Source: Escherichia coli
GTDB taxonomy: Bacteria; Pseudomonadota; Gammaproteobacteria; Enterobacterales; Enterobacteriaceae
Length of the DNA stretch: 6,510 nt
Assembly (NCBI RefSeq): GCF_003334335.1
Contig: NZ_QOWQ01000075.1
Direction: 5' to 3' (one strand)
Under the pieces are notes generated by a model. The model did no database searches and was not told where the DNA came from. It saw only the letters and a program-made list of their open reading frames with translations. This document shows positions 918 to 1,615 of the stretch, in pieces. Every line of letters starts with the position of its first letter. The stretch's first letter is position 1. The position numbers were made by a program, and so were the translations under genes.

Positions 918-1615
918 TGCAGGATATCCGGCAGGAAACACTGAATGAATGCACCCGTGCGGAGCAGTCGGCCAGCGTGGTGCTCTGGGAAATCGATCTG
1001 ACAGAGGTCGGTGGAGAACGTTATTTTTTCTGTAATGAGCAGAACGAAAAAGGTGAGCCGGTCACCTGGCAGGGGCGACAGTATCAGCCGTATCCCATTC
1101 AGGGGAGTGGTTTTGAACTGAATGGCAAAGGCACCAGTACGCGCCCCACGCTGACGGTTTCTAACCTGTACGGTATGGTCACCGGTATGGTGGAAGATAT
1201 GCAGAGTCTGGTCGGCGGAACGGTGGTCCGGCGTAAGGTTTACGCCCGTTTTCTGGATGCGGTGAACTTCGTCAACGGAAACAGTGACGCCGATCCGGAG
1301 CAGGAGGTGATCAGCCGCTGGCGCATCGAGCAGTGCAGCGAACTGAGCGCGGTGAGTGCCTCCTTTGTACTGTCCACGCCGACGGAAACGGATGGCGCTG
1401 TTTTTCCGGGACGTATCATGCTGGCCAACACCTGCACCTGGACCTATCGCGGTGATGAGTGCGGTTATCACGGTCCGGCAGTCGCGGATGAATATGACCA
1501 GCCGACGTCCGATATCACGAAGGATAAATGCAGCAAATGCCTGAGCGGCTGTAAGTTTCGCAATAACGTCGGCAACTTTGGCGGCTTCCTTTCCATTAAC
1601 AAACTTTCGCAGTAA
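917..1615 (+). CDS. L: Minor tail protein L (tail tip assembly, Fe-S cluster-binding C-terminal domain)
   Basis: 232-aa ORF, same length and essentially same sequence as lambda gpL as I recall. AGGTGG at 904-909, 7 nt before ATG 917. TGATG overlap with the M stop (915-919). C-terminal Cys cluster (C..C...CxxCxxxC) fits the reported [4Fe-4S] site of gpL-family proteins. Confidence 0.95.
   Translation: MQDIRQETLNECTRAEQSASVVLWEIDLTEVGGERYFFCNEQNEKGEPVTWQGRQYQPYPIQGSGFELNGKGTSTRPTLTVSNLYGMVTGMVEDMQSLVGGTVVRRKVYARFLDAVNFVNGNSDADPEQEVISRWRIEQCSELSAVSASFVLSTPTETDGAVFPGRIMLANTCTWTYRGDECGYHGPAVADEYDQPTSDITKDKCSKCLSGCKFRNNVGNFGGFLSINKLSQ

Follow-up and report, generated by a model that had tools for sequence, protein, structure and literature searches.

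A lambdoid prophage of Escherichia coli carries the published iron–sulfur site of lambda tail tip protein gpL, with four ligand cysteines and one additional cysteine

The tail-tip gene block

The stretch of DNA analysed, 6510 bases in length and referred to below as the window, corresponds to the tail-tip block (H-M-L-K-I-J) of a lambdoid prophage in E. coli. The tail genes are all located on the plus strand:

25–591, plus strand: C-terminal part of the tape measure gene (TIGR01541, 180 bits)
588–917, plus strand: M, distal tail protein (ORF)
917–1615, plus strand: L, tail tip protein gpL (phage minor tail protein L), 232 aa (ORF, PF05100, TIGR01600)
1620–2363, plus strand: K (ORF; ‘C40 family peptidase’ in RefSeq)
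2261–2902, plus strand: I (ORF; start at 2300 in RefSeq)
2975–3313, plus strand: 112-codon ORF within an AT-rich insert (ORF)
from 3380, plus strand: J, first 1043 codons (NF049904 lambda_TipJ, 2209 bits)

The gene order of lambda is kept, running from the C-terminus of the tape measure protein through M, L, K and I to lambda_TipJ. Gene L is placed between M and K/I/J, 3′ of the tape measure gene, in line with how RefSeq annotates the same prophage. Positions 1–6409 of the window are 98% identical to E. coli DA33133, in which RefSeq labels the products ‘phage minor tail protein L’, ‘C40 family peptidase’, ‘tail assembly protein’, ‘hypothetical protein’ and ‘phage attachment tail tip protein J’. 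A megablast search of phage records found about 94% identity across about 90% of the window in lambda-like phages (mEp332, phage 21 and lambda isolates), and the same arrangement occurs in chromosomal prophages of complete E. coli genomes. An Rfam scan of the whole window gave zero family matches.

Several features of the neighbouring genes can be noted. The ATG of K is located at 1620, five bases past the stop codon of L, and the frame is open for 247 aa; the 248-codon ORF is identical in the RefSeq annotation, where it is called ‘C40 family peptidase’. In its classical annotation, lambda K is 199 aa long. Residues 3–114 of K have a weak match to the desampylase model NF041370 (E 1e-6, below the cut-off), a match that suggests an N-terminal JAB/MPN-like domain followed by the NlpC/P60 peptidase domain. 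K, which ends at 2363, overlaps I out of frame by 64–103 nt, depending on the true start of I; the possible starts are 2261 (213 aa, MAATHTLPL...) and 2300 (the RefSeq start, MARICLYG...). In J, the nucleotide similarity to both the closest prophage (DA33133, 98%) and phage mEp332 ends at 6409, so that about 6409–6510 lies beyond it, and other lambdoid phages keep matching until 6479–6510. This looks like a mosaic junction in distal J at about residue 1010, close to the end that binds the receptor.

Identity of the L product

The product of 917–1615 is the gpL of a lambda-like prophage, its tail tip protein (hub domain I). Profile PF05100 (Phage_tail_L) matches residues 29–230 over model positions 1–206 of 206 (E 2.7e-101), and the equivalog TIGR01600 scores 331.2 bits at a cut-off of 70.75. 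The protein is 100% identical to RefSeq WP_001152648.1 (E. coli DA33133, ‘phage minor tail protein L’). Compared with lambda ‘Tail tip protein L’ (PDB 8IYK, 8IYL, 8K35, 8XCG and 9E7M), it has 229 of 232 residues identical over the full length, and the match to chain L of 8iyk has an E-value of 6e-158. The two proteins also share their length, all eight cysteines and the H-M-L-K-I-J neighbourhood. The differences in prophage L are A92V, Y124D and S185H, and the lambda locus lacks the insert of about 450 bp that the prophage carries between I and J. His185, three residues past C182, was considered as an unusual residue near the cluster ligands and was rejected as an ordinary polymorphism; it is the commonest residue at this position in close relatives (57/151), and distant relatives vary freely there.

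The testable features of the gpL family were all found in L: it matches the profiles, is nearly identical to a characterised member, has the four ligands in register and lies in the expected gene order.

Cysteines of the C-terminal domain

L contains cysteines at positions 12, 39, 140, 173, 182, 205, 208 and 212. The first-pass annotation had pointed to closely spaced cysteines in the C-terminus of L at 1430–1555, and the codons of C173, C182, C205, C208 and C212 all lie inside this interval. The residue strings that it quoted span 1427–1558, slightly wider; translated on the plus strand in the L frame, 1427–1558 reads NTCTWTYRGDECGYHGPAVADEYDQPTSDITKDKCSKCLSGCKF and contains all three strings.

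According to a cryo-EM study of the lambda neck and tail, residues 154–232 of lambda gpL constitute an iron-binding domain, and extra unassigned density amid Cys173, Cys182, Cys205 and Cys212 was modelled as an iron–sulfur cluster (PMC10721106). All four of these cysteines are present in prophage L. The annotation had stated that the C-terminal cysteines of gpL-family proteins are reported to coordinate a [4Fe–4S] cluster, which agrees with this map; it had also named an alignment with characterised gpL as the check, and in this alignment the four ligand cysteines occupy identical positions.

The conservation of the cysteines was assessed in homologues of a wide range of identities. A word-indexed homologue search returned close relatives, with at least 69% identity among the 120 matches listed; these were too close for testing ligand conservation, and an exhaustive search of representatives was therefore used. 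This phmmer search covered 1.84 billion cluster representatives and gave 2401 matches at E ≤ 0.001. The phmmer and word-indexed matches were mapped to query positions, and 219 of them cover residues 170–215. The domain and its cysteine codons are given below, with the number of homologues that have Cys at the position, grouped by identity.

1376–1612, plus strand: C-terminal iron-binding ([4Fe–4S]) domain of gpL, residues 154–232 (limits from PMC10721106)
1433–1435, plus strand: Cys173 codon TGC, cluster ligand 1, named in PMC10721106; 68/68 (<50%), 11/12 (50–70%), 73/75 (70–90%), 64/64 (≥90%)
1460–1462, plus strand: Cys182 codon TGC, cluster ligand 2, named in PMC10721106; 68/68 (<50%), 12/12 (50–70%), 74/75 (70–90%), 64/64 (≥90%)
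1529–1531, plus strand: Cys205 codon TGC, cluster ligand 3, named in PMC10721106; 67/68 (<50%), 12/12 (50–70%), 74/75 (70–90%), 64/64 (≥90%)
1538–1540, plus strand: Cys208 codon TGC, extra lambda-clade cysteine, non-ligand, not named in PMC10721106; 1/68 (<50%), 11/12 (50–70%), 72/75 (70–90%), 63/64 (≥90%)
1550–1552, plus strand: Cys212 codon TGT, cluster ligand 4, named in PMC10721106; 67/68 (<50%, the remaining one a gap), 12/12 (50–70%), 73/75 (70–90%), 61/64 (≥90%)

Conservation of the cysteines had been part of the earlier claim, and for the four ligand positions it extends to 67–68 of the 68 homologues below 50% identity. Departures at these positions are rare singletons, which plausibly come from fused or truncated gene calls, many of which are in the match list. 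The ligand spacing C-x8-C-x22-C-x6-C is also kept in homologues below 50% identity, with x8 in 63/68, x22 in 60/68 and x6 in 66/68; among close homologues all spacings are essentially universal, and the C173–C182 spacing is x8 in 151/151. In a MAFFT alignment of L with 11 homologues at 30–60% identity, the four ligand cysteines are among only ten invariant columns. The N-terminal Cys12, Cys39 and Cys140 are not conserved in the 68 homologues below 50% identity.

The same pattern is seen in solved structures. When residues 154–232 were used as the sole query, 8iyk was matched at E 2.9e-52, and the F2-pyocin hub protein, T1 gp36 and the hub protein gp21 were also matched with the same cysteines aligned. 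These distant homologues (25vf, 9l9p and 23gd, respectively) all have the four ligand cysteines.

These data bear on whether the cysteine enrichment might be a matter of composition, or whether the region might be read in another frame or on the other strand. The latter has a certain basis in the window, which contains a long ORF on the strand opposite L (815–1621) and short ORFs in the other plus-strand frames. However, the antisense ORF has no family match, while the L frame is backed by curated family profiles and by a solved structure. As for composition, the chance of finding five cysteines per 40 residues is P ~8e-5 at the 1.1% cysteine background assumed here, which is typical of proteomes, and P ~0.012 at the rate of L itself (8/232). 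Conservation weighs more than composition and decides against a chance origin: four of the five cysteine columns are near-invariant with fixed spacing in homologues down to 30–40% identity, and these four columns are invariant in homologues at 30–50% identity. The probability left to a chance or frame effect is practically negligible.

The antisense ORF opposite L (815–1621, minus strand, 268 aa) was rejected as a gene; a PHROG search of it returned no family. A second long antisense ORF (4310–6067, minus strand, 585 aa) lies opposite J. We regard both as side effects of GC-rich coding sequence and not as genes.

The additional cysteine

The first-pass annotation had assigned all five closely spaced cysteines to the cluster. 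This stands for C173, C182, C205 and C212, but not for C208, which PMC10721106 does not name and which only one of the 68 distant homologues has. Cys208 is an additional lambda-clade cysteine and a non-ligand. It is kept in 146/151 homologues at ≥50% identity; below 50% identity, position 208 is occupied by R (34), T (12), S (9), K (5) or another residue (7). In the solved distant homologues, this position is R in the F2-pyocin hub protein (25vf), T in T1 gp36 (9l9p) and C in the hub protein gp21 (23gd).

It is conceivable, and in our estimation highly improbable, that Cys208 is an alternative or transient ligand while the cluster is being inserted or once it has suffered oxidative damage (ligand swapping). 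In the lambda clade Cys208 is close to fixed; together with C205 and C212 it makes up a C-x2-C-x3-C string, and it recurs in gp21 (23gd). Ligand swapping of this kind, if true, would make the cluster of lambda-type gpL redox-responsive or repairable, and the nearby polymorphic His185 could modulate it.

The iron–sulfur site

With a probability of about 0.9, residues 154–232 of prophage gpL bind one [4Fe–4S] cluster via Cys173, Cys182, Cys205 and Cys212 (C-x8-C-x22-C-x6-C), most likely as a structural brace. From the 98.7% identity to lambda gpL we infer that the prophage protein binds [4Fe–4S]; the prophage copy is presumably expressed and loaded with iron. Biochemical work by Tam et al. 2013, as cited by PMC10721106, identified an oxygen-sensitive [4Fe–4S]2+ cluster in gpL homologues. 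In T1 gp36, clustered density was interpreted as an iron–sulfur cluster (PMC11945409), and cluster density has also been reported for RcGTA gp13 and the hub protein of roseophage R4C, both with four cysteine ligands.

The four cysteines might instead bind Zn2+ in a zinc-knuckle-like manner, or form two disulfides in the mature extracellular virion, with the Fe–S assignment being an artefact of overexpression or modelling. A Cys4 zinc site and a [4Fe–4S] site are indistinguishable from sequence alone, and the density of a metal centre in a medium-resolution cryo-EM map permits more than one reading. Both a zinc site and disulfides are nevertheless unlikely, because density of the size of a cluster is seen in several independent maps: those of lambda, T1, RcGTA and R4C all contain a strong and bulky feature that was modelled as a cluster. 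Fe–S(Cys) distances have been reported for RcGTA, and folding of the protein takes place in the cytoplasm, a reducing environment in which disulfides do not normally form. Together with the [4Fe–4S]2+ identification that PMC10721106 attributes to Tam et al. 2013, this makes a zinc site or a pair of disulfides extremely unlikely.

The site is the published lambda gpL [4Fe–4S] site in a prophage allele and is already known from several cryo-EM structures. It has little significance beyond correct annotation, and the prophage allele adds nothing new; a modest value lies in telling the four ligands apart from the fifth cysteine, independently and by conservation.

Comparison with other tail hub proteins

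T1 gp36, the F2-pyocin hub protein (25vf) and gp21 (23gd) share with prophage L the two-domain layout and the four aligned cysteines, but they are distant, with about 175–210 residues aligned at E-values from 2e-39 to 1.6e-12. Insertions between the first two cysteines occur in distant solved homologues; the F2-pyocin hub protein has x12, compared with x8 in prophage L. The hub proteins of RcGTA (gp13) and R4C also have a four-cysteine iron-binding domain in the tail hub, and their gene arrangement is like lambda L-K-I-J. In these proteins, however, the ion-binding domain is split by an inserted oligosaccharide-binding domain and is itself followed by a clip domain, and prophage L has neither of the two.

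Gp25 of Alishewanella phage LSH1, a gpL C* variant, occupies the equivalent position in a siphophage hub, but it has no cysteines capable of holding a cluster and has a different β-sheet structure in this region (PMC13243795). Since LSH1 gp25 is without these cysteines, the cluster is a trait of the gpL family proper and not of all hubs, and is dispensable to the fold class.

Possible role of the cluster

According to the literature, three copies of gpL and three copies of gpJ form the conical tip beneath the gpM ring, and gpL's C-terminal domain together with the N-terminus of gpJ is the counterpart of the HDII-insertion domain of T5 pb3. Upon LamB binding, HDII, HDIII, HDII-ins1 and the ‘4Fe-4S’ domain rotate off the axis as unchanged rigid bodies (PMC11101478). 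A review has drawn an analogy to the iron of the P2 and phi92 spikes and proposed a stabilised conformation of gpL (PMC7291167). The cluster sits on the tip's outer surface, facing the solvent, and the authors of PMC10721106 call its function open. The question for the field is the purpose of a cluster on the tip exterior, and it is no more testable with prophage L than with lambda.

The cluster most likely acts as a structural cross-brace by which the small C-terminal domain of gpL is folded and stiffened. The braced domain would allow gpL to be built into the tip and to dock on gpJ, and would then move as one rigid unit once LamB has bound and the tip opens. A structural role, instead of one in redox chemistry or sensing, is what we infer for the cluster.

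Alternatively, the cluster might be a sensor of redox state or oxygen, or a checkpoint in assembly, in which case its oxidation state or its insertion by host Isc/Suf would gate the assembly or triggering of the tail tip. Virions are infectious and stable in air, which counts against such a sensor. Its appeal comes from the oxygen sensitivity of the cluster in isolated protein, its exposure on the solvent-facing outer surface of the tip and its function being called open (PMC10721106), and also from the clade-specific extra cysteines that adjoin the ligands, namely C208 in prophage L and Cys at position 209 in P0189. The extra Cys208 is, however, missing in 67/68 distant homologues, redox-dependent infectivity is not reported in the literature consulted, and the ‘4Fe-4S’ domain stays the same rigid body in going from the closed to the open state (PMC11101478). 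A sensor or checkpoint is therefore considered improbable, and the structural brace is the preferred role.

The AT-rich insert between I and J

The segment between I and J (2903–3379, about 450 bp) has a GC content of 34.9%, compared with 55–59% in the tail genes. Its ORF at 2975–3313 on the plus strand encodes a predicted lipoprotein of 112 aa, MNKTILFCTIIALTGC, with the lipobox LTGC; a terminator-like hairpin with a T run is located 3′ of this ORF, at 3337–3357. The insert is missing from lambda, and a tblastn search across 50,697 phage records gave zero matches; 334 of the 5426 complete E. coli genomes carry it. It is probably a moron, an accessory gene in a phage genome with its own terminator.

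The protein is listed in RefSeq under WP_001332187.1 as a ‘hypothetical protein’ and is a member of phrog_914 (function unknown); searches found no family in Pfam and nothing meaningful in NCBIfam. The AF2 model of the lipoprotein is confident (pLDDT 85), and its best fold match in the PDB is the Francisella lipoprotein Flpp3, a weak and non-significant similarity (E 9e-3, TM 0.52). A surface or superinfection exclusion function would be a guess. Homologues with 50–60% identity are found in Klebsiella, Enterobacter, Kluyvera and Jejubacter; among the homologues, the motif MGGYDVVLD is invariant and two cysteines are conserved.
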